DNA of 64,000 nucleotides, taken from the NCBI GenBank assembly GCA_964372875.1, contig CAYJTB010000002.1, positions 21,576 through 85,575 on the forward strand. The letters are read 5' to 3'. The notes under the pieces were generated by a model. The model did no database searches. It saw only the letters and a program-made list of their open reading frames with translations, and was not told where the DNA came from. Source of the stretch: an uncultured bacterium (lineage in GTDB: Bacteria > Omnitrophota > Omnitrophia > Omnitrophales > JACQLI01). Positions 20,001-63,125 of this stretch are shown here, one piece after another. The position numbers and the translations under genes are program-made. Within the stretch, counting starts at the first letter, position 1. Each line of letters begins with the position of its first letter.

Positions 20001-20024
20001 CCGTCATGACGAATTTGAGGAGCA

Positions 20025-20804: not shown

Positions 20805-20828
20805 AATGAAGGAGAATGATTACATCTA

Positions 20829-22976: not shown

Positions 22977-22980
22977 AGCG

Positions 22981-25855: not shown

Positions 25856-25857
25856 GT

Positions 25858-30870: not shown

Positions 30871-31598
30871 AAAAAGCCGCCGGAATTTTTATTATAGGAA
30901 CGGACACAGGCGTCGGAAAAACCGTGGTGGCCGCAGGACTTGCCCTTGTCTTGAAGGAACGCGGCATGCGGGTCGGTGTGATGAAACCCGTAGCGACCGG
31001 ATGTTTTGGAGAGGGGAAGCGGCTTATTTCAGGAGATGCGGTTTATTTATTAGAAGCCGCTGAAAACGAGCGCCCTTATCTTGCCAATCCGCTTCGTTTT
31101 AGAAATCTGCTGGCCCCCAGCGTTGCCAGCGTCATTGAAAAAAAAGAAGTGCCGATTGAAAAAATCTTGAAGGCCTACCGGGAGCTGCAGCGTCATTATG
31201 ATTTTATTATTGTCGAAGGAATCGGCGGACTTTTAGTTCCGCTCACAAAAGATTATTTTGTGGCCAATCTCATTCACGAATTTGGTCTTCCTTTGATGGT
31301 GGTTGCCCGGGGGGGGCTCGGAACTATTAATCACACGCTTCTTACAATAGATGCAGCAATCATTCGGGGGTTTGAAATCCGGGGTATCATTTTTAACCGG
31401 ATGCCGCGTGTCAATTTCTCCATAGCGGAGATCACGAATCCTAAAGTGATCCACGACATCACAGGCATTCCCGTGCTCGGGACGTTGCCGGAACTGGATG
31501 ATGTGGACGTAGAAACCTGCCGCTTTGGGAATCTCAAAGAAGTCTTCCGCGAACGGATTGATCTGGACCAGCTTTTCCGGTTCGAGACCATTTCTTAG
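30867..31598 (+). CDS. bioD: Dethiobiotin synthetase
   Basis: GTDTGVGKT P-loop. BioD length. Confidence 0.85.
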   Translation: MKKAAGIFIIGTDTGVGKTVVAAGLALVLKERGMRVGVMKPVATGCFGEGKRLISGDAVYLLEAAENERPYLANPLRFRNLLAPSVASVIEKKEVPIEKILKAYRELQRHYDFIIVEGIGGLLVPLTKDYFVANLIHEFGLPLMVVARGGLGTINHTLLTIDAAIIRGFEIRGIIFNRMPRVNFSIAEITNPKVIHDITGIPVLGTLPELDDVDVETCRFGNLKEVFRERIDLDQLFRFETIS

Positions 31599-33640: not shown

Positions 33641-33998
33641 GGCGAGAGAACGAGAAAGCAAAACTTATTTGTGAAGATGCAGAATCCAAGATTAAAACGG
33701 ATAAGGTGTCGCCTTCGTTCGATGGACCTGGCGAAAAATCTTTTCCGGATTTTTCGCCGACGGTCCAACGCCGACTCCGGCTAATGAGAGGTCGCTTAAA
33801 AAATGGTTTCTCTTGCGGAAGGACACGGCCTGGGCGCGCTCGGAAGGCCGAGCGGGCATGGACTGGCCACCCAATCACTGTCTCTTATTTCTCTTATGGC
33901 CAGGAGCGAGGCCGGACGCGCGGGCGAAACACGCCTCGCTGAGGCGTGTTGAGCGGCGAACGGGACGTTGTACTTCCGCTTGTGGAACTAATCCTGTC

Positions 33999-35270
33999 AT
34001 GAAAGCACTCAAAGGCGGAATTAAGCTTGAAGGAAAAAAAGAGGCGACGACGATGCCATGGACGATCGCAAAGCCTTGGGCATCCAAACGCGTCCGGATT
34101 CCGCTTTGCGGATCCGCTCCGGTAAGTCTTCGCTCCCTTGTTAAAGAAGGCGAGCGAGTTCTGCGGGGTCAAAAAATCGCGGAACCCGAGGATGAAAACT
34201 CTACCGCGGCGCATGCTTCCCTGTCCGGAAAAGTAAATCAGATCGCATCTTTCCCGCACCCCCTTTTTGAAAATTTCGAAGCCATTGAAATTTTATCTGA
34301 CGGAAAAGATGAACCTGCCCAAGGAGTAGGACAAGAGCGCGCGGGATGGGAATCCCTGGAACCGCGTAACATCGTAGGAATTCTCCGTGACTTGGGAGTC
34401 ATCTCGCTTCTTCCCGCCCTTTCTCACCCTATCGACACTCTTATTATCAACGGCTGCGAATCCGAGCCGTATCTTACGTCAGAATATTGTCTGATGATGA
34501 GTCATCCTTCGGAAATCTTAAAGGGCGCGGAAATTTTAAGACGCGCTTTAGGGGCCCAAGATGTGATCTTGGCCGTGGAGGATAATAAAGAAGACGCCGC
34601 GGAACTATTCAAAAGCAAAATTTTTTTGGCCCGCTCCAACGTGCGGGTAAAGATGCCGCCTGCGCGTTATCCCCAAGGCAATGAAAAAATTCTCATCCGT
34701 GAAATTTTGGGAAGAAGAATTCATCACGGAGATCACCCGGCAAAATCCGGAGTGGTTGTTTTTGATATCGCAACCGCCCACGCCGCGTTTGAAGCCGTCG
34801 TGTTGCAAAAACCATTTTATGAAACGGTGGTCACGATCGGCGGCGAGTGTGTCGCCCAGCCGAAGAATTTTTGGCTTCGCGCGGGGACCTTGGTGGAAGA
34901 TGCGATCAAGCACTCCAAAGGTTTCCTAAGAAAACCGGCCAAGACGATTCTGGGAGGGCCGATGAGCGGTACTGAACTTTTAACGTTGGATGTTCCCGTC
35001 CTTAAAAGATCGGCCGCGATTCTGGGTCTTCCGCCTGAAGTGGCGAAACCGGAATCGATCGAGCCTTGCATCCGCTGCGGGCTCTGTGTGGATAATTGCC
35101 CGGCTTATATTTCTCCCGTGATGATTACACTGGCCGCCGAAAAAGATCTTTTCGATGTCGCCCAAGAGTATGATGCCCGCCTTTGTATTGAATGCGGAAA
35201 CTGCTCCTACGTTTGTCCCTCCAAACGTCCGATGGTGGAACTGATTCAATACGCGAATGCCAATTCCTAA
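33999..35270 (+). CDS. rnfC: Rnf-type electron-transport complex subunit C
   Basis: I chose ATG 33999 because the 62 upstream codons look spurious. GGIKLEG...VLRGQ N-terminus. Two [4Fe-4S] motifs, CIRCGLCVDNCP and CIECGNCSYVCP. Confidence 0.7.
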   Translation: MKALKGGIKLEGKKEATTMPWTIAKPWASKRVRIPLCGSAPVSLRSLVKEGERVLRGQKIAEPEDENSTAAHASLSGKVNQIASFPHPLFENFEAIEILSDGKDEPAQGVGQERAGWESLEPRNIVGILRDLGVISLLPALSHPIDTLIINGCESEPYLTSEYCLMMSHPSEILKGAEILRRALGAQDVILAVEDNKEDAAELFKSKIFLARSNVRVKMPPARYPQGNEKILIREILGRRIHHGDHPAKSGVVVFDIATAHAAFEAVVLQKPFYETVVTIGGECVAQPKNFWLRAGTLVEDAIKHSKGFLRKPAKTILGGPMSGTELLTLDVPVLKRSAAILGLPPEVAKPESIEPCIRCGLCVDNCPAYISPVMITLAAEKDLFDVAQEYDARLCIECGNCSYVCPSKRPMVELIQYANANS

Positions 35271-36090
35271 AGGCAAAGCGCCTCATATCCGGTCGAGCAA
35301 TTCTGTCCCTCGGATCATGTGGACTTTTATCCTTGCCCTTTTTCCCCTGGTCTTCGTGTTTTTGTGGACTGAAAAATTTGACGCGTTCCGCACGCTTGCC
35401 ATCTCTTCCGCCTCGGGTCTTTTAAGTGAAATGGGAATGCAGAAAATTTTAAGAAAGCGCGTGAGTCTTTACGATGGAAGCGCTCTTCTCGCTTCACTTC
35501 TCTTTGCTTTATTTATCCCTGTGCATTTAGCGTCCTGGCAGGTTGCCCTGGGCGCGGCCTTTGGAATGATCTTTGGAAAACAAATTTTTGGAGGCCTTGG
35601 CCAGAATCCGTTTCATCCCGCGGTCGTTGGCTGCGCGTTTATTTTCGTAGCCTTTGCACAGTCCTTAAATTTTGGAATTCCTTTAATAGGCGTCGAATCC
35701 TACAGTTTGATCACAGCAACAGCCCTTGGAGGACTTGTTCTGCTTTTTTCTAAAATTATCCGCTGGGAAGCGCCTCTTCTTTATTTAACAGGTTATGTTC
35801 TCTTTTCTCTCGCTTTAGGCAACCCCGGCGGCAATTTTGATTGGCTGCTTCTTATCGCCGCATTTTTTCTGGTGACCGATCCGGTCACAACCCCGCTTAC
35901 CCGGATGGGGCAACAATGGTTTGCCTTGGGGGCCGGGATTTTAAGCGCGCTTTTTTCAAAGCCTCTTCCTTTCTTTCAAGGAATCATCTACGCCATTTTG
36001 TGGATGAATGCCTTAAACCCTTGGTTTGACCAGCTCTTTCGTCCCGCCGGTACGCGAAAAGTTTACGGATTCAACCTCGCCCCGAAATGA
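35257..36090 (+). CDS. rnfD: RnfD/NqrB-family membrane subunit
   Basis: Polytopic. NPFHPAVVGCAF matches the RnfD NPAL-VG-R region. Confidence 0.6.
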   Translation: MPIPKGKAPHIRSSNSVPRIMWTFILALFPLVFVFLWTEKFDAFRTLAISSASGLLSEMGMQKILRKRVSLYDGSALLASLLFALFIPVHLASWQVALGAAFGMIFGKQIFGGLGQNPFHPAVVGCAFIFVAFAQSLNFGIPLIGVESYSLITATALGGLVLLFSKIIRWEAPLLYLTGYVLFSLALGNPGGNFDWLLLIAAFFLVTDPVTTPLTRMGQQWFALGAGILSALFSKPLPFFQGIIYAILWMNALNPWFDQLFRPAGTRKVYGFNLAPK

Positions 36091-37146: not shown

Positions 37147-38226
37147 ATGATTAATTTACTCATTCAAGCAGCCCTCGAAAAAGGCGCCTCAGACCTTCAC
37201 CTCTCGGTGGGCCGCGGACCCACTTACCGTATTCATGGCGACCTCATTTCCTTTGACCCCAAACCTTTAACTCCCCAAGACCTGGAAACGATGACTCGTG
37301 AAATCACCACCGAAGAACATCGAAAAAAAATTGCTGAGGTAGGAGGTGTAGATTTTGGGTTCTCTTTCAACGAGCAAGCACGGATTCGTGCGTCGGTTTT
37401 TAAAGAAAAGGGAAATTTTGGAATCGCACTGCGCCCATTGCCCAACCGTTTTTTTAAATTCGAAGAGATTGGACTGTCAGAAAAAGTTATCGAGCTTTTG
37501 AACCGGCCTCGCGGCATGATCCTTGTCACAGGTCCGACGGGTTCCGGAAAAACGACCACCTTGGCGTCCATGCTCAATTACATCAATGAAAACCTCCCCA
37601 AACATATTATTACGGTTGAGGATCCAATCGAATTCATGCACCCTCACAAAAAAGCCTTGATTACGCAGCGTGAAGTGGGCGAGGACGTCTCTGATTTTTC
37701 TGAAGCCGTGGTCAAGGCCCTTCGCCAGGATCCGGACGTTATTCTTATCGGTGAAATGCGCGATCTTGCAACGATGGAATCCGCCATTCGTGCAGCAGAA
37801 ACCGGACACCTGGTTTTTGCGACCTTGCACACGACAGGCGCGGCCAGAACCGTCGACCGTATTATTGATGTCTTTCCATCGCACCAACAGGCACAAGTTC
37901 GCGTTCAGCTTTCTGCAACCCTTATTGCCGTTGTCTCGCAGACCCTCTTGCCTAAAGCGGACGGAAAAGGCCGTGTGGGCGCCTTCGAAATCATGATTGC
38001 AACACCCGCTATCCGGAATCTGATCCGGGAAGGAAAGACTTATCAGATTACCTCTGAGATCCAGACCGGGGCCCGGTACGGAATGAAACTCTTGGATGAT
38101 CACTTACGCGAGCTTTATGAAGCCAATCTCGTCTCTTTTGATTCTGCTATGCAGGCCGCTTACGAACCTAAAGAACTCTCCGAGAAAATTGTTCGGACCG
38201 TAGGTGCGGGCAAGGCGAAAAAATAA
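37147..38226 (+). CDS. pilT: Type IV pilus retraction ATPase
   Basis: Walker A GPTGSGKTTT. PilT N-terminus MINLLIQAALEKGASDLHL. AIRNLIREGK motif. Confidence 0.85.
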   Translation: MINLLIQAALEKGASDLHLSVGRGPTYRIHGDLISFDPKPLTPQDLETMTREITTEEHRKKIAEVGGVDFGFSFNEQARIRASVFKEKGNFGIALRPLPNRFFKFEEIGLSEKVIELLNRPRGMILVTGPTGSGKTTTLASMLNYINENLPKHIITVEDPIEFMHPHKKALITQREVGEDVSDFSEAVVKALRQDPDVILIGEMRDLATMESAIRAAETGHLVFATLHTTGAARTVDRIIDVFPSHQQAQVRVQLSATLIAVVSQTLLPKADGKGRVGAFEIMIATPAIRNLIREGKTYQITSEIQTGARYGMKLLDDHLRELYEANLVSFDSAMQAAYEPKELSEKIVRTVGAGKAKK

Positions 38227-48504: not shown

Positions 48505-48865
48505 TTTTCTTGGATTGGGCGGACGCGGGGAGGGTCTGGCCTGGGGTTTTTTGAAAAAACAAGGTTACAAGATCCTCGAAAAAAACTACCGCACCAAACT
48601 TGGCGAAATTGATGTGATCGCTTCAAAAAAGCGTACCCTCGTATTTATCGAAATCAAAACAAGACGCAATCATAATTTCGGCCTGCCTGAAGAGGCGATC
48701 GATTGGAAAAAACGCCGGAAAATGATCCGTGCGGCGGAAATTTATCTCCAGTCAAAACGGCTAGAGAATAAAGAGGCGAGATTTGATATTCTTGCCATCA
48801 CATGGAACGGCGAAGAAGAGCCGCATTTTAATCTCTTGGAAAACGCTTTCGAAATAGAGGCCTGA
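48497..48865 (+). CDS. yraN: YraN-family (UPF0102) endonuclease-like protein
   Basis: GEIDVIASKKRTLVFIEIKTRR core. Start taken at the internal ATG (MSDFLGL). Confidence 0.65.
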   Translation: MSDFLGLGGRGEGLAWGFLKKQGYKILEKNYRTKLGEIDVIASKKRTLVFIEIKTRRNHNFGLPEEAIDWKKRRKMIRAAEIYLQSKRLENKEARFDILAITWNGEEEPHFNLLENAFEIEA

Positions 48866-51192
48866 TGAATTTTTTTAATCCGCTCGATATCCGCAAAGGC
48901 GAGGGCAGAAAAGCCCTCCTCATGTTCCTTTATTTTTTTATCACCATCACGGTCCTCTATGTTTTGAAACCGGTAAGAAGTTCTTTATTCCTGGAAGAGC
49001 TGGGAAGCCAAAAGCTCCGCTATGTCTATTTAGGCGAGGGAGTTTTTCTCCTTTTTGTGACGTGGATTTATGTGCAGCTTGCCAAACGGGTGCAGCGGAA
49101 AACTTTTTTTACGGGCGTCCTGGCGATCTTTATCTCGAACTTAATTATATTCTGGTGGCTTTTTCATCTCAAGGTTCCTTACTTGAGTGCCTTCTTTTAT
49201 ATTTGGGTTGCGTGTTTTTCGATTGTAAGCGTCACACAATTTTGGACCCTTGCCAACGATATTTTTAATCCGCAAGAAGCGAAACGCCTCTTCGGTTTGA
49301 TCATCAGCGGCGGAAGTGCCGGGGGAGTGATCGGAGGTCTTTTAACTAACCGCGCCGTCCGTTGGGTTCACACCGAAGACTTGCTGCTTCTTTCCAGCGT
49401 TCTTTTATCAAGCTGCATTGTCCTGGTGGGATTTCTTTGGCAATACCTCCCGGAAGGGTCGCCGGGTTTTGGAAAAGAAAGGGCCACGATCGAAGTCCAA
49501 TCCACACGGAAGCTTTTTATGACCTCAAAATACCTTTGGATGCTTGCCGGCATTGTCATGTTCGCCAAAGTTGCGTCCACCGTCGTGGATAACCAATTCA
49601 ACGCAATTGTGGAACTTCACTTGGTAGGTAAGCAAGCCAAAACAGCCTTCTTCGGGGCCTTCAGCGCCGGGCTTAATGTGATTTCTTTCTTGATGCAAAT
49701 TTATGCGACGAGCATGTCGCTTCGCCTCTTGGGGATCGGAATTTCACTCGCCCTTCTTCCTGTGGGTTTGTCTGGAGCGTTTCTTTTCACGGTTCTTATC
49801 CCAGCTTTGGGGACCGCTACCTTCCTTAAAATTTTTGATGGAAGCATTAATTATTCCATTCAGCAGGCTTCCAAAGAAGTGCTCTACTTGCCGCTTTCCT
49901 CCAGTGTCCGCTACCGCGCCAAACCGGTGATCGACATGCTGATTTACCGCGTCTCAAAAAGTTTGGGGGGGCTTCTGATCATTATTTCCGCAACCCTTTT
50001 TGCGATTCCCAACGACCGGACCGGGATTTTGATTTTTTTCTTAGCGCCGTTTTGGCTTTTTTTGGTTTGGAAAATGAAATCGTCCTACCTTCATTTATTA
50101 CGTGAAAGGCTTTGGACGGACAAAGGCAAGGGCTCCATTTCAAAACCTCGCCGGGTCACGGAAGTGCTGAGTTTCCTTTACGATGAAAAAACCGTAGGTG
50201 AATTAAAGACTTTTTTGAAAGAAGAGTCGACCTTGGCCCGAAAGATGGCGGCCGCTGCATGCCTTCTTTATCACAGGGCAGGCAAGGATCTGGAGGCCAC
50301 CCGGAGACTGGTCAATGATATGATTCGCTGGGAAGCTCTGGAGACGCCTTCTAAGGATTCTGCCGAAAATGGCATGGGCCAAGAACGGGAATTCTTAGAT
50401 GAACTTCTCTTGCGGCAAGCCGAGAAGGAAGTTTCGAATCAACCAACTTCATTGTCGCAGGAGGATGCGCCTGCCGTTTTAAAAAGGCTCGAGACCCTTT
50501 TGGAAGATCCCAAGCAGGGGATGGGCATCAAACGCTCTGCGTGCGAATTTCTGGAACACCAGGCCGGCCAAAAAACAGCCGACGCCCTTTTTAAAATTCT
50601 CTCCCAAACCCAAGGTCATGCGCTCCGGTTTCTTTTAATCCAGACTCTTTCAAAGGTACAGGAACGCAATCCCTCGATTCGCTGGAACCAGGCGCTCGTT
50701 AAAAAAGAAATTTTCAGGGAAACCGAGCTTTATTTTAAAATCGGAAAACTCTCGAATTTTTATCAAGAAAGCCCCGTCAAAAAAGAAGAATTCTTGGAAG
50801 TAGCCCTCGGCGCACTCTCAGATGAAAGCCTTGAACGTTTGTTTCGCTGTTTCGGATTGCTCTATCCCGGAGAGGCGATGCGGATCATCTATGAGCGTCT
50901 TTTAGAACACCCTCATCCCGACGCTGTTCGCTCCCACGCCCTGGAGCTTTTGCATAACCTGGTGGGTCCAGAATTTTACGGGCTTTTGGAAAAACTCTTT
51001 GATCAAAAACCTTTGAGCAAGATTTCAGAGCAAGAGGCCGTCTCTATCCTTGAAGGAATGCTGAATTCTTCCGACAGGTGGCTTTCTCTTGTTGCAAGAT
51101 TTTTAGTGGGCGAGACAGACTTGAAAGGCCGATGGCCTAAATTGGGTGGTTCGGTTTCTGATTATTTGAAATTTGAATCTTTGGATGTTTAG
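48865..51192 (+). CDS. NTT/Tlc-family nucleotide (ATP/ADP-type) transporter fused to a C-terminal ~330-aa HEAT/ARM-like helical-repeat domain
   Basis: N-terminal 12-TM region with LKPVRSSLF and FWTLANDIFNPQEAKRLFGLI, matching Tlc FWQFANQI..EAKRFY..FG. The C-terminal part is an all-helical repeat (…LEHPHPDAVRSHALELLHNLVG…). Confidence 0.65.
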   Translation: MNFFNPLDIRKGEGRKALLMFLYFFITITVLYVLKPVRSSLFLEELGSQKLRYVYLGEGVFLLFVTWIYVQLAKRVQRKTFFTGVLAIFISNLIIFWWLFHLKVPYLSAFFYIWVACFSIVSVTQFWTLANDIFNPQEAKRLFGLIISGGSAGGVIGGLLTNRAVRWVHTEDLLLLSSVLLSSCIVLVGFLWQYLPEGSPGFGKERATIEVQSTRKLFMTSKYLWMLAGIVMFAKVASTVVDNQFNAIVELHLVGKQAKTAFFGAFSAGLNVISFLMQIYATSMSLRLLGIGISLALLPVGLSGAFLFTVLIPALGTATFLKIFDGSINYSIQQASKEVLYLPLSSSVRYRAKPVIDMLIYRVSKSLGGLLIIISATLFAIPNDRTGILIFFLAPFWLFLVWKMKSSYLHLLRERLWTDKGKGSISKPRRVTEVLSFLYDEKTVGELKTFLKEESTLARKMAAAACLLYHRAGKDLEATRRLVNDMIRWEALETPSKDSAENGMGQEREFLDELLLRQAEKEVSNQPTSLSQEDAPAVLKRLETLLEDPKQGMGIKRSACEFLEHQAGQKTADALFKILSQTQGHALRFLLIQTLSKVQERNPSIRWNQALVKKEIFRETELYFKIGKLSNFYQESPVKKEEFLEVALGALSDESLERLFRCFGLLYPGEAMRIIYERLLEHPHPDAVRSHALELLHNLVGPEFYGLLEKLFDQKPLSKISEQEAVSILEGMLNSSDRWLSLVARFLVGETDLKGRWPKLGGSVSDYLKFESLDV

Positions 51193-51202: not shown

Positions 51203-51670
51203 ATGATTCTTTGGATCACCCTTCTGCTTTTTTTATTTTCGGGATGCAGCACTTCGAAGTCTAGCCCTCCTTTGGAGATACCTCTTGTTCCCTCCGCTTC
51301 CGTGGAGGAAAGCACTACCTTTGAAAAAGCCCTGGCCTCACCGCCCGCCTCTAAAGAAGTCGAAAGGGCGAGAATCGAGTATCTCCTTGAACGGATCGCC
51401 AAGTCTCCTTATAATTTCATTCGTAATGGAACTCAACATAGCGGAAAGCGCGCTGAAATTCATTTAAGATGGAAATATCTGCGCAATCAAAAAAAAGCTG
51501 CGGCCGCCGAACAATTTATCAACGACGTCGCCACCCGTTCAAAAATTTCCGGGGAGAAATATCTCGTGGTGCTTCCGGACAAACGCCGCATTCCTCTCCG
51601 GAATTTTTTAGTTCATGAACTCCATTCCTTTGATAAAAGCCTTGAAGAAAAACACCGCGAAAATCTTTAG
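51203..51670 (+). CDS. Lipoprotein of unknown function
   Basis: Lipobox LLLFLFSG-C. Confidence 0.5.
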   Translation: MILWITLLLFLFSGCSTSKSSPPLEIPLVPSASVEESTTFEKALASPPASKEVERARIEYLLERIAKSPYNFIRNGTQHSGKRAEIHLRWKYLRNQKKAAAAEQFINDVATRSKISGEKYLVVLPDKRRIPLRNFLVHELHSFDKSLEEKHRENL

Positions 51671-53006
51671 ACTTTTTTCTTCTTTGGCGATCTTTTTAGC
51701 CCTCGCCCTTTTTCCATCCTTTTCACTTTGGGCCCAAGAAGATTCTTATGACCGTTACGGCGCTGTCTGGCCCGAGGGCTCAGAATCTCCAAAATCAGCC
51801 GCAGGCATGCAAAATTTCAGGGATCGTTTTTTAACCTATCCCTTTGAAGTCATCAGATGGCCGTTCAATAAGACCCTTGTCTATGTGGAAGAAACTCACT
51901 TGAAAGACAAGGCGGATTGGATTTACGAACGCATGAAAGATTTCGGGATCACGCCCCGTGTCCACAAAGGAACCAGCGTTCGAGACGGGTTTGGCGGCGG
52001 TCTTAATCTGGAGTTTGTTAAATTTCTCCACTTAAAAGAATATTTTCCTGATCTGAGCGTTGAAGCTTCAGGGTTATGGACTGTTGATCCTATCGTTGCC
52101 TATGAACTTAAAGTAAGACAAGATAGAATCTTAGAATCAGGATTTTTTACGGGCGGGAATTTTAAATATGAAAACCGGGGAGATGAGCACTTTTATGGAA
52201 TGGGGCCTCATACGAGCCTGGGCGACGGCACCTCCTATAAATTGGAAAGAACCACTCTCGACGGCTTCTTGGGTTATGAGTTTTTAAATACCTGGAATGT
52301 CAAACAAACTTTTAGTTACCGCAACGTCAATATCTCGAACGGCCGAAAAGGGGGAAGGGGCGTCATTGATTCTATTTTTGTCGCAACAGGACGTCAGGAC
52401 ATTCCTGGCCTTGCGGGGGATCGGATCCTGAGTTGGGATATGAATCTTGAGCACGACAACCGCGATAGTAAAGATGCGCCCACCGAAGGAGGGTATGAAA
52501 GGTTACATTTTGGTGTCAATAAAGGAACAGAAAACAACACCGGTTATCTTAAATACCGCGCGGAAGCTGGACATTTCTTTAAATTATTTTCAGACCCTAG
52601 AGTCTTTGCTGTTCGTGGGTTAGCAGAACAAAATAATGGTTTTGGTGACCGCAATGTTCCTTTTTTCGAAATGGCGCGCCTGGGAGGCTACGGGGCCTAC
52701 CCCCGTTTCGGCGAGGCCCACCGCGGCTACATGCGCGACCGTTTTTATGACCAAGACCTTATTTTATTCAATATGGAATACCGGTGGGTCGCTTGGGAAT
52801 ACCGGAGCTGGACGATGGATTCGGTCCTTTTTTCTGACATCGGTCAGGTGTTTGACCGGTGGAGAGATTTTTCACTCGGTGATTTTCGAGTCTCTTATGG
52901 CATGGGATTCCGGCTTAATTTTGAAAAAACTCAGCTGATAGGTTTTGAAATTGCCCGGGCAAATGAAGGAATAGAACTTTATGTTACAACTAAAGCGCCG
53001 TTTTAA
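51615..53006 (+). CDS. Putative outer-membrane beta-barrel protein
   Basis: Signal peptide. Alternating aromatic beta-strand pattern. Terminal ...ELYVTTKAPF with C-terminal Phe. Confidence 0.45.
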   Translation: MNSIPLIKALKKNTAKIFRLFSSLAIFLALALFPSFSLWAQEDSYDRYGAVWPEGSESPKSAAGMQNFRDRFLTYPFEVIRWPFNKTLVYVEETHLKDKADWIYERMKDFGITPRVHKGTSVRDGFGGGLNLEFVKFLHLKEYFPDLSVEASGLWTVDPIVAYELKVRQDRILESGFFTGGNFKYENRGDEHFYGMGPHTSLGDGTSYKLERTTLDGFLGYEFLNTWNVKQTFSYRNVNISNGRKGGRGVIDSIFVATGRQDIPGLAGDRILSWDMNLEHDNRDSKDAPTEGGYERLHFGVNKGTENNTGYLKYRAEAGHFFKLFSDPRVFAVRGLAEQNNGFGDRNVPFFEMARLGGYGAYPRFGEAHRGYMRDRFYDQDLILFNMEYRWVAWEYRSWTMDSVLFSDIGQVFDRWRDFSLGDFRVSYGMGFRLNFEKTQLIGFEIARANEGIELYVTTKAPF

Positions 53007-54645
53007 GGTCTTCGGCCTTTTTATCTTGCTGGTTTTTTTGGCGACGGGTGTTTGTGCTGAGACCGCCTCAACAAAAACTTCTTATTCCAAAAGACAAGCC
53101 GGACTCTACCGTGATGTGTCAGACCAAAACATTTATTATGAAGGTATTCAATACCTTCGTCTGGATAGATTTTATCGCCTTCTTGGCCGGGAAAAACGTG
53201 CGTTGGACATTAATGTTTTCGATGAAGTTCCGGACTCAAATTTCTTCATCAATCGTCATGGCCGTTCCCGGATGTCTTTAGAGGAATTAAAAAAAGGCCC
53301 CGGGGTAACTGACGGTCCCGATACCTCGGGTCTTTGGACGATCACCAAAGGCAAATTTGACGGTATTACCCCCGGCTTTTTCATTGAGGATGCCAAAGGC
53401 GATAAGTATCTTTTGAAATTTGATCCTGTGGATTCGCTGGAGCTGGGAACGGGGGCAGAGGCCATCGCAAGCCGGTTTCTCTATGCCATGGGCTACAATA
53501 TTCCTCAATACACCATCGTTGAATTCAACAAGGATCAGCTCGCGATCAGCGAAGGGGCGAAGGTTTTTGACGAGACCGGTTTCCGGGTGCACCTCACCCC
53601 GGAAAAACTGGATCAGTTTTTGCTTTTTGTTCCTCAAACCAAAGACGGATCCTACCGTGCTTCAGCAAGCCGCATCATCAAGGGAGAAATTTTAGGTCCT
53701 ATGAAATTTCAAGGCAGGCGGGAAAAAGATCCGCAGGACCCCATCAATCACGAAGACCGGCGCGTGATTCGGGCTCTTCAAGTATTTAACGCATGGATCA
53801 ATAATAATGATGTGAGGGAAAGTAATTCTCTGGATGTCGTCCAGGAAAAGGACGGCAAGGAAGAAATTGTGCATTACCTTATCGATTTCAATTCAAGCCT
53901 TGGGGCTACTCCGCGGGGAGCTAAGTCTCCGCAATTCGGGCATGAACACATGCTGGATTACGGTGAAACGGCCAAAGCAGTTTTGACGCTCGGCCTTCGG
54001 GACAAGCCCTGGCAGAAACGTTGGGATGAAGCCAATAGAGAAGTAGCTTCGCCCGCCGTGGGTTATTTCGATAACAGCCACTTTGATCCTGGAAAATTCA
54101 AGACCCAACTTCCTTACTATGCCTTTAAAGATTTAACCCGAGCGGACGCCTTTTGGGCGGCCAAAATCATCATGAGTTTTACAAATGAAGAAATCCAGGA
54201 AATTGTTTCGCAGGGAAAATTTTCCGATCCAAAGACCGCGGAAGAAATCGTAAAAATTCTTATCCAGCGCCGGGATCTGATGGGCCGGTATTGGTTTTCA
54301 CAGGCAAACCCGTTTGATCATTTTGAACTTGCCCCATCCGGCGATTCCTACGAGCTCCATTTTGACAATCTGGCTGTCAAATACGGCTTTGTCGATGCTG
54401 GTAAAAGCCTTTACCGTTTTGAAGTCTTCGCCCCAAAAGGGAAAAAAGAAAAAAGAATCGCCAAAGAAGAAACGACCGAGCCCGTTTTTAAGATCAACTC
54501 ACATCTTTTCAGCGAGCATCCCTCCTTGGACGTTGCGATCAGAACCCGCAGGCCCGAGGCCAAAGAATGGAGTCCCTTTGTGCGTGTTCGGATTCGTAAC
54601 GATGCCGGGGGCCCGCAAATTGCCGGCATCGCTCACGAAGACTGA
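52981..54645 (+). CDS. Secreted protein of unknown function
   Basis: Signal peptide MLQLKRRFKVFGLFILLVFLATGVCAE. 554-aa ORF; no domain recognised. Confidence 0.4.
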   Translation: MLQLKRRFKVFGLFILLVFLATGVCAETASTKTSYSKRQAGLYRDVSDQNIYYEGIQYLRLDRFYRLLGREKRALDINVFDEVPDSNFFINRHGRSRMSLEELKKGPGVTDGPDTSGLWTITKGKFDGITPGFFIEDAKGDKYLLKFDPVDSLELGTGAEAIASRFLYAMGYNIPQYTIVEFNKDQLAISEGAKVFDETGFRVHLTPEKLDQFLLFVPQTKDGSYRASASRIIKGEILGPMKFQGRREKDPQDPINHEDRRVIRALQVFNAWINNNDVRESNSLDVVQEKDGKEEIVHYLIDFNSSLGATPRGAKSPQFGHEHMLDYGETAKAVLTLGLRDKPWQKRWDEANREVASPAVGYFDNSHFDPGKFKTQLPYYAFKDLTRADAFWAAKIIMSFTNEEIQEIVSQGKFSDPKTAEEIVKILIQRRDLMGRYWFSQANPFDHFELAPSGDSYELHFDNLAVKYGFVDAGKSLYRFEVFAPKGKKEKRIAKEETTEPVFKINSHLFSEHPSLDVAIRTRRPEAKEWSPFVRVRIRNDAGGPQIAGIAHED

Positions 54646-54658: not shown

Positions 54659-55558
54659 ATGTTTTCTATTCTAAACCGTATTGGTCAAACCCCTCTGGTT
54701 CGTCTCAAAAAAATTCTCCCTCAAGGAACACCCTCTTCCGTTGAAGTGTACGCGAAGGCGGAATTGTTTAATCCTGGCGGTTCGGTCAAGGACCGGGCTG
54801 CCTGGAAAATGATCCAACAAGGAGAGGCAAAAGGGGAGTTTCGAGCAGGTAAAATTCTTATCGATTCAACCTCCGGCAATACGGGGATTGCCTATGCATG
54901 GATCGGGGCAGCCAGGGGTTTTCCCGTTGAGCTCGTGGTTCCAAAGAATGTGAGCGAAGAACGCAAAAAAATTATGAGCGGATTCGGAGCGAAGATTATT
55001 TACTCAGATCCTTTATTGGGTTCTGACGGTGCGCGGGAACTCGTAGAAGAAATCATAAAAAAAGATTCGAGCAAATATTTTTTCCCGGATCAATACAGCA
55101 ACGCCTGTAATTGGAAGGCTCATTATGAAACCACGGGGCCGGAGATTTGGGAACAGACCCAAAGAAAGGTCACCCATTTTGTCGCGGGTCTTGGCACCAG
55201 CGGGACCATGATGGGGACCAGCCGGTTTCTTAAAGAAAAAAATCCCAAGGTTTTTGCCTTGGCCGTTCAGCCGGAATCTTTTCACGGCTTGGAAGGGCTT
55301 AAAAATATGGAGTCCGCCCTCCCGGTTCCTATTTATGAACCGAAGCGCCACGACGCAAAAATTACTGTAGAAACTGAACCCGCCTATGAACTCACACGCC
55401 GCCTTGCCCGGGAAGAAGGGTTATGGGTCGGACCTTCTTCGGGGGCAGCGCTTTTGGGCGTCTTCGAACTTCTCAAGACCGTCAAAGAAGGAGTGATCGT
55501 CGCTCTCTTTCCAGACGGAGGAGATACCTATTTGAGTACCCAGCTTTGGGAAGTCTAG
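54659..55558 (+). CDS. cysM: Cysteine synthase B-like (CysM-type; possibly sulfur-carrier-dependent)
   Basis: I chose the internal ATG 54659 because the upstream 115 codons are a low-complexity extension. KAELFNPGGSVKDR PLP-Lys. SGNTGIAYA. Confidence 0.75.
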   Translation: MFSILNRIGQTPLVRLKKILPQGTPSSVEVYAKAELFNPGGSVKDRAAWKMIQQGEAKGEFRAGKILIDSTSGNTGIAYAWIGAARGFPVELVVPKNVSEERKKIMSGFGAKIIYSDPLLGSDGARELVEEIIKKDSSKYFFPDQYSNACNWKAHYETTGPEIWEQTQRKVTHFVAGLGTSGTMMGTSRFLKEKNPKVFALAVQPESFHGLEGLKNMESALPVPIYEPKRHDAKITVETEPAYELTRRLAREEGLWVGPSSGAALLGVFELLKTVKEGVIVALFPDGGDTYLSTQLWEV

Positions 55559-56016
55559 TGAATGTGATTATTCCCTCCGAATATCTCCAAGAAATCCGCC
55601 TTCAGGCAGAAGCCGATTATCCTAACGAAACTTGCGGAATCTTGTTGAGTCCTAAAAATCAAAAAGACCAATTATCCGCTATTTTCCCCTGCCGCAATGT
55701 CCAAGATGAGTATCATGCCCAAGACCCCGTAAGCTTTCCTAGAACCGCTCGTACCGCCTACTTTATTGATCCCAAGGACCTTTTGAAAATCCAGAGGGCG
55801 GCCCGGGAAACAAATACTGAGATGCGGGTCATTTATCATTCCCATGTCGAGGCAGGGGCTTATTTTTCCGACGAGGACCAGCGGATTGCCATTTCAGAAG
55901 GCCGGCCCGCTTACCCCGGCGTTACTTACTTGGTGGTATCGGTGTGCGAAAAAAAGGTTCAAGAAACAGCCCTTTTTGACTGGGATGATCAATCAAAATC
56001 TTATAAAAAAATTTAA
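55558..56016 (+). CDS. JAMM/MPN+ metalloprotease (Mec+/CysO-peptidase-like)
   Basis: E...HSHVEAGAYFSDED fits E-x(n)-HxH-x(7)-S-x(2)-D. GTG start overlapping the cysM stop. Confidence 0.65.
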   Translation: MNVIIPSEYLQEIRLQAEADYPNETCGILLSPKNQKDQLSAIFPCRNVQDEYHAQDPVSFPRTARTAYFIDPKDLLKIQRAARETNTEMRVIYHSHVEAGAYFSDEDQRIAISEGRPAYPGVTYLVVSVCEKKVQETALFDWDDQSKSYKKI

Positions 56017-56056
56017 GATAAAACCGTCTTCGCCGATATAATGGAGTAATTATAAT

Positions 56057-57787
56057 ATGTCTCAATCTACCCGAACACTCTTTATAGGTTTTGTCGTTGG
56101 GTTCCTCTTTGGACTCGTACTCATCGGCGTCATCAGGCCTCGTGGCATTCGTCCCTCCGATCGAGTCATAGCTAAGTTTGGTGGTGTCGAGCTCAAAGAG
56201 AATGAACTCAGAGAACGAATTGCAGAGCAGCTTGCACCCGCTGAAAATGAAGAATATCGAAGTCTCCAGGCGGGCGCCCAAGATTGGATCAATACCGGGC
56301 TTTTAGAAAAGGAAGCCAAAGCCCGAGGCGTTGATATCAAAGAAATCTATAAAGATGTCTGGAACCGCGTGCATGTCGGCTATGAGGATATGCTGCAAGT
56401 CTATAAGCAAAACAAGGAAAGTTATGGCAATCAGCCCTTTGAGCAGGCAAGCGGTTTGATCGCCTCGCAGTTGCGTACCATCAAATATGGCGAAGCGAAG
56501 AAAGCTTATGTCCAAGAACTTCATAAAAAATATCACGCCGAGATTTTCTTAGAAAAACCAAAAATTCTTATCGAGGGTTCAGCCCTGCCAATCCAACTTA
56601 AAATAGGCGAATCGGCCGCGGTGCAGGTAGAGGGAGACAAGATTCAGCCGGAAGCCCCCTCGGTTAAAACAGGAGCCGCCCCCGAGGTTGGGGTCGGCGC
56701 AAAGGGTGCTCCTGCCAAGGGATCGCCTAGTGCGCCTATCAAGATGGTTGAATTTGCAGATTTTCACTGTCATTTTTGCAGAAAAGTTGCCGCGACTTTG
56801 GAAAAAGTTGTGCAAAATTATCCTGACAAGGTTCAGTTAATCTTTCGGCATTACCCTCTTTCGCCTTCTCCTGGGAGCGAGTCCTTTTTAACCCATGAGG
56901 CGTCCGCTTGCGCAAATGAGCAAGGTAAATTTTGGGAATTTTACGATGAAATTTATAAAACCGAATCTTCTCCAAAGCCTGATGATTTGGAAGGTCTGGC
57001 CTCCAACGTTGGTCTGGATATGGGAAAATATAAAGAATGCATGCAGAGCCACCGTTATCAAAGCGCTATTCAAAATGATATTGCCGCAGGAAAAGCAAAA
57101 GGGGTCCAAGGTACACCCACGATTTTTGTCAATGAGGAAACCGTCAACGGCGCTTATCCTTATGAATATTTTGTGGATCTAGTTAATAACATTCTCACCC
57201 CGGGAAAAGTTAAGCCCACCCAAAAACCTGCCCAGCCCTCACCGGCCGCGGAAGGCCCCGTTCAATTTAATAACGATGACTTAAAAGGCAGACCCAGCAT
57301 AGGACCTGACAATGCACCCATCACGATCGTAGAATTCAGCGATTTTCATTGTCCTTTCTGTAAACGCGTGGGCCCCACCTTGGAACAAGTCATGAAAAAC
57401 TACAAAGGCAAAGTCCGGAGGGTTTGGCGTCATTATCCTCTTCCCATGCATGCCGGAGCCGACCGCACCCATCAAGCCTCGGAATGCGCCCATGAACAAG
57501 GCAAATTCTGGCAATACCACGACAAAATTTTTGAGACCCAAGGTCCGAAGCATGACCAGTTACTTACGGAAATTTCGAAACAAGTAGGACTCGATCAAAA
57601 GAAATTTGAGAAATGTCTCTCCCAAGGCAAATACAAAAATCTTATTCAACAGGAAATTGCCGAAGGCAGCAAAGTGGGAGTCCGGGGTACGCCTACTCTT
57701 TTTGTCAACGGTCAAAGACTTCCCGGAGCCGTACCTTATGAAAGTTTCGACTCAATTATCAAGAGCGAATTAGCAAAAAAATCTTAA
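56057..57787 (+). CDS. Membrane-anchored protein with an N-terminal chaperone-like region and two DsbA-like thioredoxin domains
   Basis: N-terminal TM. Two CxxC motifs in DsbA context (DFHCHFCRK and DFHCPFCKR). Confidence 0.6.
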   Translation: MSQSTRTLFIGFVVGFLFGLVLIGVIRPRGIRPSDRVIAKFGGVELKENELRERIAEQLAPAENEEYRSLQAGAQDWINTGLLEKEAKARGVDIKEIYKDVWNRVHVGYEDMLQVYKQNKESYGNQPFEQASGLIASQLRTIKYGEAKKAYVQELHKKYHAEIFLEKPKILIEGSALPIQLKIGESAAVQVEGDKIQPEAPSVKTGAAPEVGVGAKGAPAKGSPSAPIKMVEFADFHCHFCRKVAATLEKVVQNYPDKVQLIFRHYPLSPSPGSESFLTHEASACANEQGKFWEFYDEIYKTESSPKPDDLEGLASNVGLDMGKYKECMQSHRYQSAIQNDIAAGKAKGVQGTPTIFVNEETVNGAYPYEYFVDLVNNILTPGKVKPTQKPAQPSPAAEGPVQFNNDDLKGRPSIGPDNAPITIVEFSDFHCPFCKRVGPTLEQVMKNYKGKVRRVWRHYPLPMHAGADRTHQASECAHEQGKFWQYHDKIFETQGPKHDQLLTEISKQVGLDQKKFEKCLSQGKYKNLIQQEIAEGSKVGVRGTPTLFVNGQRLPGAVPYESFDSIIKSELAKKS

Positions 57788-60227: not shown

Positions 60228-63125
60228 GTGTCTTACCCCCGCTTAGGAAAATGGAAAAATGTTTTTTTCTGCCTTCTATTTGCCTTCGCGATTTCTAAAA
60301 CCTCTTCTGCTGAGACGTCGCCCTCAATCGAATTGGCAGTTCATTCCCCCGAAAATCTCGCGGTTCAGTCTTACAGTGTGGAAATAGGAAAGTCTCTTGC
60401 CCTTCCTGCCCGCAATCCATCGCGTTATTTAGTTTCTTCTCCCGAGGTGATTCGAATCACACAGGTGAGACCGGATGCCATTGATCTGGTCGGCCAGAAG
60501 TTGGGATCGACCCTCATCCTGGTGTGGGAAGAGACGGGGATCAGGAGTATTCAAATCACCGTAACGCGTGAGATGAAAGAAATAGAGAAAATACAGCAGA
60601 TCAAACAAGGGTCTTCCAAACTTTATCAGTCCCGGAAAAGCAGGTCCTTTAAGACAACCTACGAATCCGGCTATTCCATTCTCGAACAAGGCAAGATTTT
60701 AAACCGGGTCAGCGAGGTGCGTAAAATTTATAATCACGCCGTGAGCTTGAAGGGCAATACCCCCTTGGGTGATCTTGCGGGAAGCTTCTTCTATGAATAC
60801 CGCAAAGAACAAAGCATGAGAAAATCCGTGGCCCTTCCAAGAAACGCCTGGATAGGATTCTTTGATACGGATTTGCCCGGGAAAATTTTGGACCACTATG
60901 ACATGATCGGAGGAGAACAATATCTCAGTTTAAGTGAGTTTGGGTTTCCCGGCGCAAGATACTCGGGCTTTACCCTGTTACCTACAGAAAAAAGAGCAGA
61001 GAAGCCGGAAAAGGGACGTTTGGACTTGTCTTTTTTTGTCGGTCGCGAAGAGCGCGGCGCTTTTTTAGATAACCCCGCCAATACCAACCAGAGAGATATT
61101 AAACTCAATAACCGATTCACCGGTGAGAAGGTGGATTATCATCTATGGGAGCGCGGAAAAATTTCCCTGGGTACTTATCAAAAATGGGGCGGCCCCACCG
61201 CAGCCAATCAGGCGGAAAAAAATTACGACACAGGGTTTGATTTTGGCTTTCCTTATGTGCGTTTCAAAGGGCAAACGGGTTTGGACAACCGAAGACACAC
61301 GGCCATGCGGTACCACGCCCTATTTGAAAACAGCTGGACCCACACCGAGAATATTTTTCTGTACGTCGATCCAAATTACCGCACGATTACGGGAACCACA
61401 TTAGATCAGGGCCGCCGCGGCTGGCAGCTGCATTCAAGATTTCTCCCTTTGATGCCTTGGATAAAATCCGACGCCGTGGAATTAAAATTTGACGCCGACA
61501 TCACCCGGGATCTTTTGTCAGTCAATCCCAAACACCCGCACGATTACAACAAGTACTTTAAAGCGGGTGCGGGAACCCGCCTTCCTTTTAAATTAAAAAA
61601 TGAGGTGTCCTTTGAATATCGCAATCGTTTAGCGACTTCTTTCCCCTACACGCGCAAAAGAATCCACGAGCGGCTGAGTAGGGAAATCTCATTTAATTCG
61701 AGATGGATTAGACGCATGCGCCTTTACGGTCTTTCCACCCTTGAGCGTTATGGAGATGCGGAAAATACACCGGGTTTTAATGCCATCCGGTACGAAGTGG
61801 GCGGAGGAAATTACGTTTATTTGTTAGGAGGAATCTGGCTTTCCGGACAATATCTTTGGGACCGATTGGATGAGAAGGAAGCAAATCTGCATCCGGATAA
61901 AAGGACAAACCCCGGGCAGCTCACTTTAGCGGGAGGGGTCAATCATTCTTTCCGCAGGCTTCCTATCAGTGTGGGGACAAGCTTTCGCTACACCGATGAA
62001 AGGAAAACCATCCCCAAGCTTCACGACCCTTTCATTAATGAAGATCGATTTGAGGTGCGGGGTTCTGTCAATGTGAGGCTTCCTGATAACAGCACCTTTT
62101 ATGTCGAAACAAGGGCCACAAGAATAGAGTCTTTGGTGGGCAATCCCAAACGCATGGAGCTTACACTCGCCTTCGGGACACGTTTAAATTTTGATACCCA
62201 TTTTTATTTTCCCCAAAAGGCAACCATCGAAGGGTGCTTTTTTTTAGATAAGAATGCCAACGGACTCAAGGATGCCGAAGAAGAAGGCCTTCCGGGTATG
62301 GAAGTGGGAGTGGAAAGGGGGCCCAAAACCAAATCCGGCCACTTGGGTTTTTACCGGCTCAGACTTTGGGAAGGACTTGTTGTTTTTAAAGCTACTGACA
62401 AAATTCCCGAGGGATACTTCTTTACCACGCCTAGCGAACACGAACTTGAAATGTTGCCTAAAATGAAAACCCGCGTTGATTTCGGAATTGTTCCGCAAAC
62501 CCAAGTAAAAGGAAGGGCTTATGTGGATATCAATGAAAATTTTATTTTTGATAAAGACGATGTGCCAGTTCCAGCATTACAAGCGGTTCTTGATTCGGGG
62601 GAGTTTGCAGTGACTTCGTCGCAGGGACTTTATTCGATCCTTCAAATCAAACCGGGAGCTAACCGAATCCGTCTTTACATTCCTAGCATCCCCACAGGTT
62701 ACCGAACCATCACTCCGATTGAAGAGAAGTTTGAAGGCAAGCCCGGTGAACTTACGGTTTTTGATATCGTGATGACGATTGAGAGACACGTAGGCGGAAG
62801 CGTTTTTCTCGATACTAATAAAGATGGACGCCGGGCGCTGGATGAGCCGGGCATCGCTAATGTCTCGCTTTCTATCGACGCTCAAAAAGCAACAACGGAT
62901 AAGAGTGGAAAATACTCATTCAAAGACTTAAAGCCGGGGATAAAAAAGATAAGAATAGAAAAGTCGAGTTTAAGGTCGGATTACACCCCATCACTCGATA
63001 CGCTGGAGATTGAAATACCAGCAGGTTTCATAGCCCAAACCGACCTTAACTTTCCCGTCCAAGAAAAAGATGTACCCATGCCGGCATTGGAAGAGTCTCA
63101 AATTGACCCGCCAGGCACGAATTAA
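60228..63125 (+). CDS. Large secreted/outer-membrane protein, candidate usher-like, with three C-terminal SdrD-B/Cna-B-like repeats
   Basis: Signal peptide. C-terminal repeats FFLDKNANGLKDAEEEGLPGMEVGV, YVDINENFIFDKDDVPVPALQAV and VFLDTNKDGRRALDEPGIANVSL (DxNxDG-type). Confidence 0.35.
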   Translation: MSYPRLGKWKNVFFCLLFAFAISKTSSAETSPSIELAVHSPENLAVQSYSVEIGKSLALPARNPSRYLVSSPEVIRITQVRPDAIDLVGQKLGSTLILVWEETGIRSIQITVTREMKEIEKIQQIKQGSSKLYQSRKSRSFKTTYESGYSILEQGKILNRVSEVRKIYNHAVSLKGNTPLGDLAGSFFYEYRKEQSMRKSVALPRNAWIGFFDTDLPGKILDHYDMIGGEQYLSLSEFGFPGARYSGFTLLPTEKRAEKPEKGRLDLSFFVGREERGAFLDNPANTNQRDIKLNNRFTGEKVDYHLWERGKISLGTYQKWGGPTAANQAEKNYDTGFDFGFPYVRFKGQTGLDNRRHTAMRYHALFENSWTHTENIFLYVDPNYRTITGTTLDQGRRGWQLHSRFLPLMPWIKSDAVELKFDADITRDLLSVNPKHPHDYNKYFKAGAGTRLPFKLKNEVSFEYRNRLATSFPYTRKRIHERLSREISFNSRWIRRMRLYGLSTLERYGDAENTPGFNAIRYEVGGGNYVYLLGGIWLSGQYLWDRLDEKEANLHPDKRTNPGQLTLAGGVNHSFRRLPISVGTSFRYTDERKTIPKLHDPFINEDRFEVRGSVNVRLPDNSTFYVETRATRIESLVGNPKRMELTLAFGTRLNFDTHFYFPQKATIEGCFFLDKNANGLKDAEEEGLPGMEVGVERGPKTKSGHLGFYRLRLWEGLVVFKATDKIPEGYFFTTPSEHELEMLPKMKTRVDFGIVPQTQVKGRAYVDINENFIFDKDDVPVPALQAVLDSGEFAVTSSQGLYSILQIKPGANRIRLYIPSIPTGYRTITPIEEKFEGKPGELTVFDIVMTIERHVGGSVFLDTNKDGRRALDEPGIANVSLSIDAQKATTDKSGKYSFKDLKPGIKKIRIEKSSLRSDYTPSLDTLEIEIPAGFIAQTDLNFPVQEKDVPMPALEESQIDPPGTN

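Follow-up and report, generated by a model that had tools for sequence, protein, structure and literature searches.

What does a nucleotide transporter with a helical-repeat tail do in a bacterium of the Omnitrophota? Genes for NTTs are routinely taken as markers of energy parasitism, and in 2023 the 'ATP/ADP translocase' of Omnitrophota was read as an ATP-scavenging symbiosis trait (Seymour et al. 2023, Nat Microbiol; PMC10066038). We analysed such a gene in a 64,000-nucleotide stretch of an uncultured Omnitrophota genome (hereafter the window; contig CAYJTB010000002.1). The features discussed are collected in Table 1.

Table 1. Features of the NTT-HEAT locus (positions in the window)
Feature	Position	Strand	Extent	Basis and remarks
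NTT-HEAT gene	48865..51192	+	775 aa	ATG start; ORF call, Pfam match, independent gene call
NTT/Tlc-type 12-TM transporter domain	48865..50139	+	residues 1-425	Pfam, AF2, Foldseek, family profile
Cytoplasmic HEAT-like alpha-solenoid tail	50155..51189	+	residues 431-775 (~345 aa)	HEAT_2, AF2, profile, topology
DUF5329 probable lipoprotein	51203..51670	+	155 aa	lipobox-like LFSGC; 10 nt past NTT-HEAT stop
Omp85-superfamily outer-membrane barrel (orf463)	51615..53006	+	463 aa	signal peptide
Exported atypical kinase-like protein (orf554)	52981..54645	+	554 aa	Sec signal peptide, kinase-like domain

We found the open reading frame with the bounds, strand and length that an initial annotation had given it, and independent gene calling on the public contig returned the same gene; the motif FWTLANDIFNPQEAKRLFGLI occupies residues 126-146 of the protein. 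The annotation's assignment of the N-terminal part to the Tlc/NTT family also held. Pfam TLC (PF03219) matches residues 109-408 (E=4e-13; 49.5 bits vs a cutoff of 21), the AF2 model (pLDDT 76) has 12 long helices across residues 13-421, and a Foldseek comparison with the PDB placed NTT1 structures at ranks 1-5 (9j3n, 9j3l, 9j3m, 9j3o and 9j3j; E 8e-10 to 1e-6). Generic MFS transporters were the next matches, at ~1e-5. A 13-sequence family profile gave E=2.7e-31 for C. pneumoniae NTT1 (9j3n) and E=9.8e-24 for AtNTT1 (9j3j), and the domain keeps the NTT motifs FW..AN(D/E)I, EAKR, KE..Y.P, K.K..ID and R362/K365. Like Chlamydia Npt1/NTT1, Rickettsia Tlc1 and plastid AtNTT1 (PDB 9j3j-9j3o; TC 2.A.12), it has the 12-TM fold, the signature motifs and equivalents of E385 and K527. 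Unlike the canonical ATP/ADP translocases, it is 18% identical to NTT1 (E 1e-6 to 2e-3), has no K155 or E245 and carries the extra 345-aa cytoplasmic tail. Judged by sequence, the characterised ATP/ADP exchangers are distant relatives: the transporter scores 38.6 bits against TIGR00769, the NCBIfam model of the canonical NTP/NDP exchanger, and does not reach its cutoff of 387.2, so we did not assign the canonical ATP/ADP translocase label.

The cytoplasmic HEAT-like tail, previously put at ~330 aa, was confirmed at slightly greater length by structure prediction, HEAT_2, profile and topology. The AF2 model places ~17 short helices across residues 433-763 as an alpha-solenoid, HEAT_2 scores 28.0 bits on the tail alone (cutoff 27.7), and with the family profile alphaRep/HEAT-like repeat proteins come up at E 1e-23 to 1e-12. 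The tail is placed in the cytoplasm because the K+R count (~26 inside vs 10 outside) gives an N-in/C-in topology, with TM10 taken from the AF2 helices since a crude hydropathy scan missed this amphipathic segment. Its invariant residues, charged and other, are E441, R459, K460, E490, R588, E619, E654, R658, E694 and W739, and the fusion of NTT and HEAT parts is kept in homologues down to 38% identity. These results show that the gene product is an NTT/Tlc-type transporter of the inner membrane that carries a cytoplasmic HEAT solenoid, and it probably belongs to the NTT-HEAT clade.

The initial annotation was right that canonical NTTs lack this tail, but the fusion is not peculiar to this gene: NTT-HEAT proteins have been published as a monophyletic clade, spread widely among free-living bacteria and without functional characterisation (Major et al. 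2017, Genome Biol Evol; PMC5381601). Like the members of that clade (PMC5381601), the window protein joins an N-terminal PF03219 domain to C-terminal HEAT repeats (PF13646), and like them it comes from a bacterium not known as intracellular. In the transporter domain, it is 31-38% identical to NTT-HEAT proteins of 885-1002 aa (E 1e-59 to 1e-76), some of which have a cNMP-binding neighbour (cf. PMC5381601); unlike these, it has neither a cNMP-binding neighbour nor such a fusion. The kinase/Omp85-linked subfamily to which the window protein belongs is not mentioned in PMC5381601.

The most informative feature of the gene is this operon context, which the initial annotation missed. We found that the NTT-HEAT gene is the first of a tightly packed NTT-HEAT/DUF5329/Omp85/kinase unit that is conserved across phyla and rearrangements. 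Its start shares 1 nt with the stop of the upstream yraN/UPF0102 gene (TGATG), a 10-nt gap follows its stop, the Omp85 gene, counted from its first ATG, overlaps the DUF5329 gene by 56 nt, and the kinase gene overlaps the Omp85 gene by 26 nt; independent gene calls were identical. A scan for promoters and terminators from 43 to 57 kb gave counts not above those of shuffled controls and hence is silent on the operon boundaries. In orf463, Pfam detects only the Omp85 barrel domain at E<=1 and no POTRA domain. A barrel gene beside and overlapping the gene of an exported partner is also seen in two-partner secretion (TpsB/TpsA) and other Omp85-partner pairs; unlike in TpsB/TpsA, the partner here is a 554-aa kinase-like protein and not a large beta-helical exoprotein. 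We rejected classical two-partner secretion for orf463/orf554, as neither a POTRA domain nor a TPS domain was matched with Pfam.

Three gene orders were found for the unit: NTT-DUF5329-Omp85-kinase, as in the window (arrangement A), PTP-Omp85-kinase-NTT-DUF5329 (arrangement B) and NTT-kinase (arrangement C), with the DUF5329 gene located with the NTT gene in both A and B. We counted 50 non-redundant loci flanked by 2.5 kb or more on each side, taken from the best 80 of 470 metagenome matches and thus biased to relatives of the window protein; the kinase was at 40/50 of these loci and Omp85 at 34/50, and ten informative NTT-HEAT loci had no kinase. The linkage is retained amid unrelated flanks in a Pseudomonadota MAG, a Terriglobia MAG and other lineages. 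Omp85-kinase pairs with no NTT within 7 kb occur in a Krumholzibacteriia MAG and an Acidobacteriota-type metagenome contig; hence, the NTT is not an obligatory neighbour. Two further contigs with the kinase were too short to inform on its surroundings. The rpsP-trmD-rplS-rnhB-yraN block is likewise syntenic within Omnitrophota.

Sequence searches for relatives of orf554 gave nothing significant in Pfam, NCBIfam or the PDB (the PDB even with a profile), so its identity is known only through fold comparison; of the HipA_C, HipA_2, CotH and Fam20 families none matched above threshold, with HipA_2 at 16.1 (cutoff 27) and HipA_C at 13.8 (cutoff 30.5). The fold is bilobal and kinase-like, of the atypical class (HipA/CtkA, Fam20, CotH, PI4K-II), and the best structural match is CtkA. 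We found the catalytic Lys, the Glu, the D-x4-N loop and the DFG-type metal-binding Asp all present in the kinase-like domain (~residues 95-440; K146, E160, D277, N282 and D302-F-N), and K146, E160, D277, N282 and D302 do not vary in 57 homologues spanning all three arrangements. The domain is preceded by a conserved N-terminal motif (residues 78-93, modelled at low confidence) and followed by an FnIII-like beta-sandwich (residues 445-552). Signal peptides with n-h-c organisation are present in 20/20 aligned kinase homologues, and the kinases of arrangement C carry lipoboxes. The phosphatases of arrangement B carry signal peptides, and their CX5R(T) loop is intact. Within the window, no PTP phosphatase matched at E<=1, either with phmmer or with an HMM of 13 arrangement-B phosphatases; hence, arrangement A lacks a local phosphatase here.

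For the substrate site, we compared four mutagenesis-derived residues (PMC4256464) and aligned the motifs. AtNTT1 K155, E245, E385 and K527 are the four conserved charged TM residues of the family, and K527 is reported as important for transport of NTP and Pi (PMC4256464). The window protein keeps 2/4, with D242 for E385 and K365 for K527; K155 aligns with Y55/G57 and E245 with A116. Some accepted microsporidian members of the family also lack 3/4 of these residues (PMC4256464). In the C-terminal half, a cluster of basic residues (R349, R351, K353, R362 and K365) is identical to that of C. pneumoniae NTT1 at each position, as are D357 and KE..Y.P. We found K365 in 61/62 kinase-linked transporters vs 3/9 kinase-less ones, and R362, K337, Y330 and Y341, which also match C. 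pneumoniae NTT1, follow the same pattern; these canonical-NTT residues, together with D132, are mostly lost in the sampled kinase-less NTT-HEAT proteins.

The conserved operon with an exported kinase and an outer-membrane barrel suggests that ATP is fed to the cell envelope and not taken from a host. Because of the transporter fold, the operon packing, the linkage, the export signals and the kept K365/R362 residues, we tentatively regard export of ATP to the periplasm by NTT-HEAT, for use by the exported kinase, as the best explanation as a whole. The transporter would perform the reversible nucleotide antiport of its family with a net direction that we infer to be opposite to that in energy parasites, so that cytoplasmic ATP would enter the periplasm while ADP (with or without Pi) moves the other way. 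The released ATP would be the phosphate donor for the kinase in a compartment otherwise without one, and the kinase would phosphorylate an envelope target, possibly on or through its Omp85 partner. The exported PTP phosphatase of the sister gene order would reverse this phosphorylation, and the cytoplasmic HEAT tail may gate or otherwise control the flux, probably together with a cNMP-binding partner in other lineages. It is a more doubtful proposal that several phyla own a dedicated envelope phosphorylation system of kinase, Omp85 and sometimes PTP that is fuelled by HEAT-controlled ATP export through the NTT. In eukaryotes, ATP/ADP exchange at the ER/Golgi supplies lumenal ATP to Fam20-type secretory kinases (Fam20C). 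This is the closest analogy, in function only, as the eukaryotic carrier is from a different transporter family.

Several points weigh against ATP export. Going by the alignment, two of the four classical charged residues appear lost and the score falls far under the TIGR00769 cutoff; periplasmic ATP could leak through porins; and Omp85-kinase pairs occur with no NTT nearby. The losses would also fit a different substrate, i.e. another phosphorylated metabolite, a substrate or product of the kinase, Pi, or a cofactor (NAD, SAM) as in some NTT-family members. We consider this unlikely: the C-terminal basic cluster, D357 and KE..Y.P equal those of C. pneumoniae NTT1, and these residues are selectively kept in the kinase-linked subfamily, as expected for a polyphosphate-bearing nucleotide. 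In its favour, in addition to the low identity to NTT1, the loss of K155 and E245 and the TIGR00769 score, NTT sequence does not predict substrate range (PMC4256464) and the Foldseek matches that follow NTT1 are generic MFS transporters. That there is no functional link at all, with synteny inherited beside a housekeeping operon, the transporter acting alone and the HEAT tail only a scaffold or regulator, the role that the initial annotation had suggested for it, is very unlikely. The synteny of the whole rpsP-trmD-rplS-rnhB-yraN block in Omnitrophota, the two Omp85-kinase pairs without an adjacent NTT and the ten kinase-less loci among the best 80 of 470 matches agree with it; however, the linkage survives permuted gene order and wholly different flanks in Pseudomonadota, Terriglobia and other contigs, and transporters with and without a linked kinase differ in their residue patterns.

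A nucleotide importer, serving parasitism or scavenging from host, prey or environment as in Chlamydia and Rickettsia, with the kinase and Omp85 as a co-regulated host-interaction module (e.g. a surface or secreted effector), is somewhat unlikely. Every characterised NTT works as an importer, whether in a parasite or in a plastid (PMC5381601), and the NTP-associated lysine is conserved. Seymour et al. count the ATP/ADP translocase of Omnitrophota (K03301) as a symbiosis factor, and the window gene very probably belongs to that family; their study mentions no HEAT tail and no operon with kinase, Omp85 and DUF5329 (PMC10066038). Import would also suit the JGI label of family members ('AAA family ATP:ADP antiporter'), the ultra-small cells and host-dependent traits of Omnitrophota, and the top structural match of the kinase, as CtkA is a secreted effector kinase. 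However, it does not account for a translational coupling to the exported kinase (in arrangement B also to an exported phosphatase) that persists through three rearrangements; the lipoprotein kinases of arrangement C would be cell-bound rather than released; and NTT-HEAT proteins occur in a wide range of free-living bacteria. Nucleotide biosynthesis is encoded in >75% of Omnitrophota genomes (PMC10066038), and the window itself has broad biosynthesis, encoding sulfate assimilation and biotin synthesis, as well as Rnf subunits. The conserved partners are exported envelope proteins and not recognisable host-interaction genes; unlike for the canonical translocases, the context points to the cell's own envelope. 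Hence, the bearing on a host-dependent lifestyle that the initial annotation had raised as a possibility is weakly founded, and we caution against taking this gene as evidence of host dependence.

The NTT-HEAT clade has had no assigned function since its description in 2017, and the conserved coupling to an exported kinase with intact catalytic residues, joined in one gene order by a phosphatase, offers a concrete hypothesis of ATP export. If true, ATP export would give part of the clade its first function and overturn the assumption that the periplasm is without ATP-dependent signalling. We found no earlier description of the module in the literature on NTT-HEAT function, periplasmic ATP and kinases, or DUF5329. 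The locus also exposes orf554 as a member of a separate, unnamed and large family of exported kinase-like proteins, which no Pfam or NCBIfam model covers and which comprises 3,688 clusters at 50% identity (E<=1e-3).

We found that the initial annotation, which placed at 48865-51192 an ORF for a nucleotide transporter with a HEAT-like repeat tail, was correct in each of these respects; the ORF starts with ATG. An independent gene call on a public contig returned the same 775-aa protein (NTT-HEAT), and the quoted motif lies within it. The Pfam TLC model (PF03219) matches residues 109-408 with 49.5 bits (gathering score 21), and a profile built from 13 diverse members of the family retrieved the characterised ATP/ADP exchangers C. 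pneumoniae NTT1 (E = 2.7e-31) and AtNTT1 (9.8e-24). In the AlphaFold2 model (pLDDT 76), residues 13-421 form 12 long helices, and the top five PDB matches are NTT1 cryo-EM structures (2025), with generic MFS transporters ranking below. The chain then continues as a short-helix alpha-solenoid up to residue 763; the C-terminal part of the family profile matches alphaRep/HEAT-like repeat proteins (E 1e-23 to 1e-12), and HEAT_2 scores 28.0 on the tail alone, slightly over the threshold of 27.7 (26.1, slightly under it, on the whole protein). The mutual placement of the two domains is uncertain in this model (pTM 0.52). With TM10 placed from the model, loops carry ~26 K+R inside vs 10 outside for an N-in/C-in topology; hence, the tail is predicted to lie in the cytoplasm.

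The NTT-HEAT architecture itself is already known: such fusions form a monophyletic clade, common in free-living bacteria, uncharacterised, and often followed by a cNMP-binding gene (Major et al. 2017, PMC5381601). The homologues we found come nearly all from Omnitrophota MAGs and retain the fusion at identities as low as 38%. By sequence, the window protein is only distantly related to the characterised exchangers, with 18% identity to NTT1 and 38.6 against a cutoff of 387 for the canonical NTP/NDP exchanger model TIGR00769. AtNTT1 has four classical charged residues (K155, E245, E385 and K527; PMC4256464), of which the window protein retains only two, E385 as D242 and K527 as K365; unlike the characterised exchangers, it has no K155 and E245 equivalents.

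The gene context is the informative part of the observation. The NTT-HEAT start shares one base with the upstream yraN stop (TGATG), and three genes follow closely. Downstream of this module are a CysK/CysM-like PALP gene and genes for a Prok-JAB/JAMM protein and for a 576-aa protein carrying two DsbA/thioredoxin domains; synteny of the PALP and JAMM genes extends to many related loci.

Positions of features in the window and in compared loci
Sequence	Feature	Position	Strand	Remark
Window	Giant ORF	6105-18431	-	4,108 aa
Window	Assimilatory sulfate cluster	18604-24255
Window	Biotin synthesis cluster	24851-31598
Window	RnfC-/RnfD-like subunits	33813-36090
Window	PilT/T2SSE-type ATPase	37147-38226
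Window	NTT-HEAT	48865-51192	+
Window	DUF5329 lipoprotein	51203-51670		10 bases past NTT-HEAT stop
Window	Omp85-superfamily barrel	51615-53006		overlaps DUF5329 gene by 56 nt
Window	554-aa kinase-like protein	52981-54645	+	overlaps Omp85 gene by 26 nt
Window	PALP, JAMM and DsbA genes	54700-57787
Window	965-aa protein	60228-63125
L121	Omp85-kinase pair	5529-8769
L122	Omp85-kinase pair	5516-8833
L029	Tandem transporters	540-4614
L123	Tandem transporters	8965-13175
L124	Tandem transporters	8933-13188
L034	NT5C nucleotidase	6039-6608
L124	5_nucleotid nucleotidase	3902-5386
L012, L015, L016, L017, L020, L024, L028, L030, L035, L057, L059, L067, L073, L125	PTP-type phosphatase			arrangement B

Comparison of the window neighbours against 33 genome loci was followed by HMM scoring of 117 loci. 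Three gene orders emerged: NTT-DUF5329-Omp85-kinase (arrangement A, that of the window), Omp85-kinase-NTT-DUF5329 (B) and NTT-kinase with no Omp85 nearby (C). In this sample, which is skewed towards sequences related to the window protein (of 470 metagenome matches, the best 80 were retained), the 554-aa family occurs at 40 and Omp85 at 34 of 50 non-redundant loci flanked on each side by 2.5 kb or more. The 10 loci without the 554-aa family all encode long NTT-HEAT proteins (885-1002 aa, 24-35% identity to the window's), four of them with cNMP-binding neighbours. Some Omnitrophota (L023, L064, L068, L070, L076; P0094-P0111) carry a tail-less NTT of ~430 aa, ~50% identical to the window TM domain and still followed by Omp85 and kinase, with DUF5329 too in 4/5 loci; hence, the HEAT tail is dispensable for the linkage. 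Outside Omnitrophota, tandem transporters pair a tail-less NTT (~445 aa) with an NTT-HEAT protein (~900-930 aa), and one such locus (L029) additionally encodes a cNMP-binding protein and a histidine kinase.

The 554-aa kinase-like protein is predicted to be extracytoplasmic, since n-h-c Sec signal peptides are present in 20/20 aligned homologues and lipoboxes in the arrangement-C kinases. It also looks catalytically competent: K146, E160, D277, N282 and D302-F303 are invariant in 57 homologues from all three arrangements, with position 304 split between G (32) and N (25), which gives DFG or DFN. It belongs to a large family: at 50% identity, 3,688 clusters reach E<=1e-3 and 1,058 reach E<=1e-30. 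Residues 34-95, a segment with AF2 pLDDT <50, hold an invariant motif (N78, D81, E82, P84, D85, F88, F89, N91, R92, H93) that may be a partner-binding element; it is also present in lipoprotein kinases without adjacent Omp85. At arrangement-B loci, a PTP-type phosphatase lies directly upstream of Omp85 (17 matches at 13 distinct loci, plus L125 via Pfam). In every case its C-x5-R(T) loop is intact and its N-terminus resembles a signal peptide, and the full operon reads PTP-Omp85-kinase-NTT-HEAT-DUF5329. The window contains no PTP-type phosphatase.

Since an exported kinase requires an extracytoplasmic phosphate donor and NTT-type antiporters are reversible, the simplest model, which we put forward tentatively, is that the transporter would swap cytoplasmic ATP for periplasmic ADP (+/- Pi), that this ATP would feed the kinase, and that the HEAT tail would regulate flux from the cytoplasmic side. 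Omp85 could serve as an anchor, a translocator or a substrate. Counting against ATP supply are the loss of two classical NTT residues, possible leakage of ATP via porins, and two loci (L121, L122; a Krumholzibacteriia MAG and an Acidobacteriota-type contig) where the Omp85-kinase pair has no NTT within 7 kb. Because such pairs exist, Omp85 and kinase form the invariant core, which is more widespread than its NTT association; NTT was found in 3/5 kinase-anchored look-ups having usable flanks. The NTT/Omp85/kinase trio also stands amid unrelated flanks in a Pseudomonadota MAG, a Terriglobia MAG and other lineages, its middle gene being homologous in two of them (BLASTP 36-39% identity, E 2e-94 to 7e-143), and we judge synteny alone, with no functional link, quite improbable.

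An ATP/ADP translocase (K03301) in Omnitrophia and Aquiviventia has been interpreted as a symbiosis factor, with the tail unmentioned (Seymour et al. 2023, PMC10066038). Nucleotide import for parasitism or scavenging is nevertheless doubtful here: the NTT-HEAT clade is found in free-living bacteria (PMC5381601), >75% of Omnitrophota genomes encode nucleotide biosynthesis (PMC10066038), and the window carries sulfate-assimilation, biotin and Rnf genes. As to the substrate, we compared 62 kinase-linked transporters with nine informative kinase-less NTT-HEAT proteins at six positions, which in C. pneumoniae NTT1 are E, Y, K, Y, R and K. The kinase-linked proteins retain D132, Y330 and K365 (61/62 each), R362 (62/62), K337 (57/62, remainder R) and Y341 (57/62, remainder F), whereas the kinase-less ones are mostly substituted, with K365 in only 3/9. 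The AtNTT1 equivalent of K365, K527, is reported to be important for nucleoside-triphosphate and Pi transport (PMC4256464). Retention of these NTT1-like residues, K365 included, favours a predicted nucleotide substrate for the kinase-linked subfamily; carriage of a different substrate is unlikely. The window protein belongs to a known, uncharacterised kind, and we found no description in the searchable literature of a module that unites NTT, exported kinase, Omp85 and DUF5329 (plus PTP in one order).

In two unrelated lineages, a nucleotidase gene sits just upstream of the Omp85-kinase-NTT cluster, an adjacency that may be coincidence. Elsewhere in the window, the giant ORF has a calcineurin-like metallophosphoesterase domain (residues 2792-3019) as its sole Pfam match; such giant ORFs have been noted as a trait of Omnitrophota, and biotin synthesis is not universal within the phylum (Seymour et al. 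2023, PMC10066038). The biotin cluster comprises BioB-like radical SAM, FabG/FabF-like, BioF-, BioA- and BioD-like genes, and the sulfate cluster comprises APS kinase, a PHP-domain protein, PAPS reductase, ATP sulfurylase and two PLP (PALP) enzymes. The 965-aa protein combines a pilus N-terminal region with an SdrD B-like domain.
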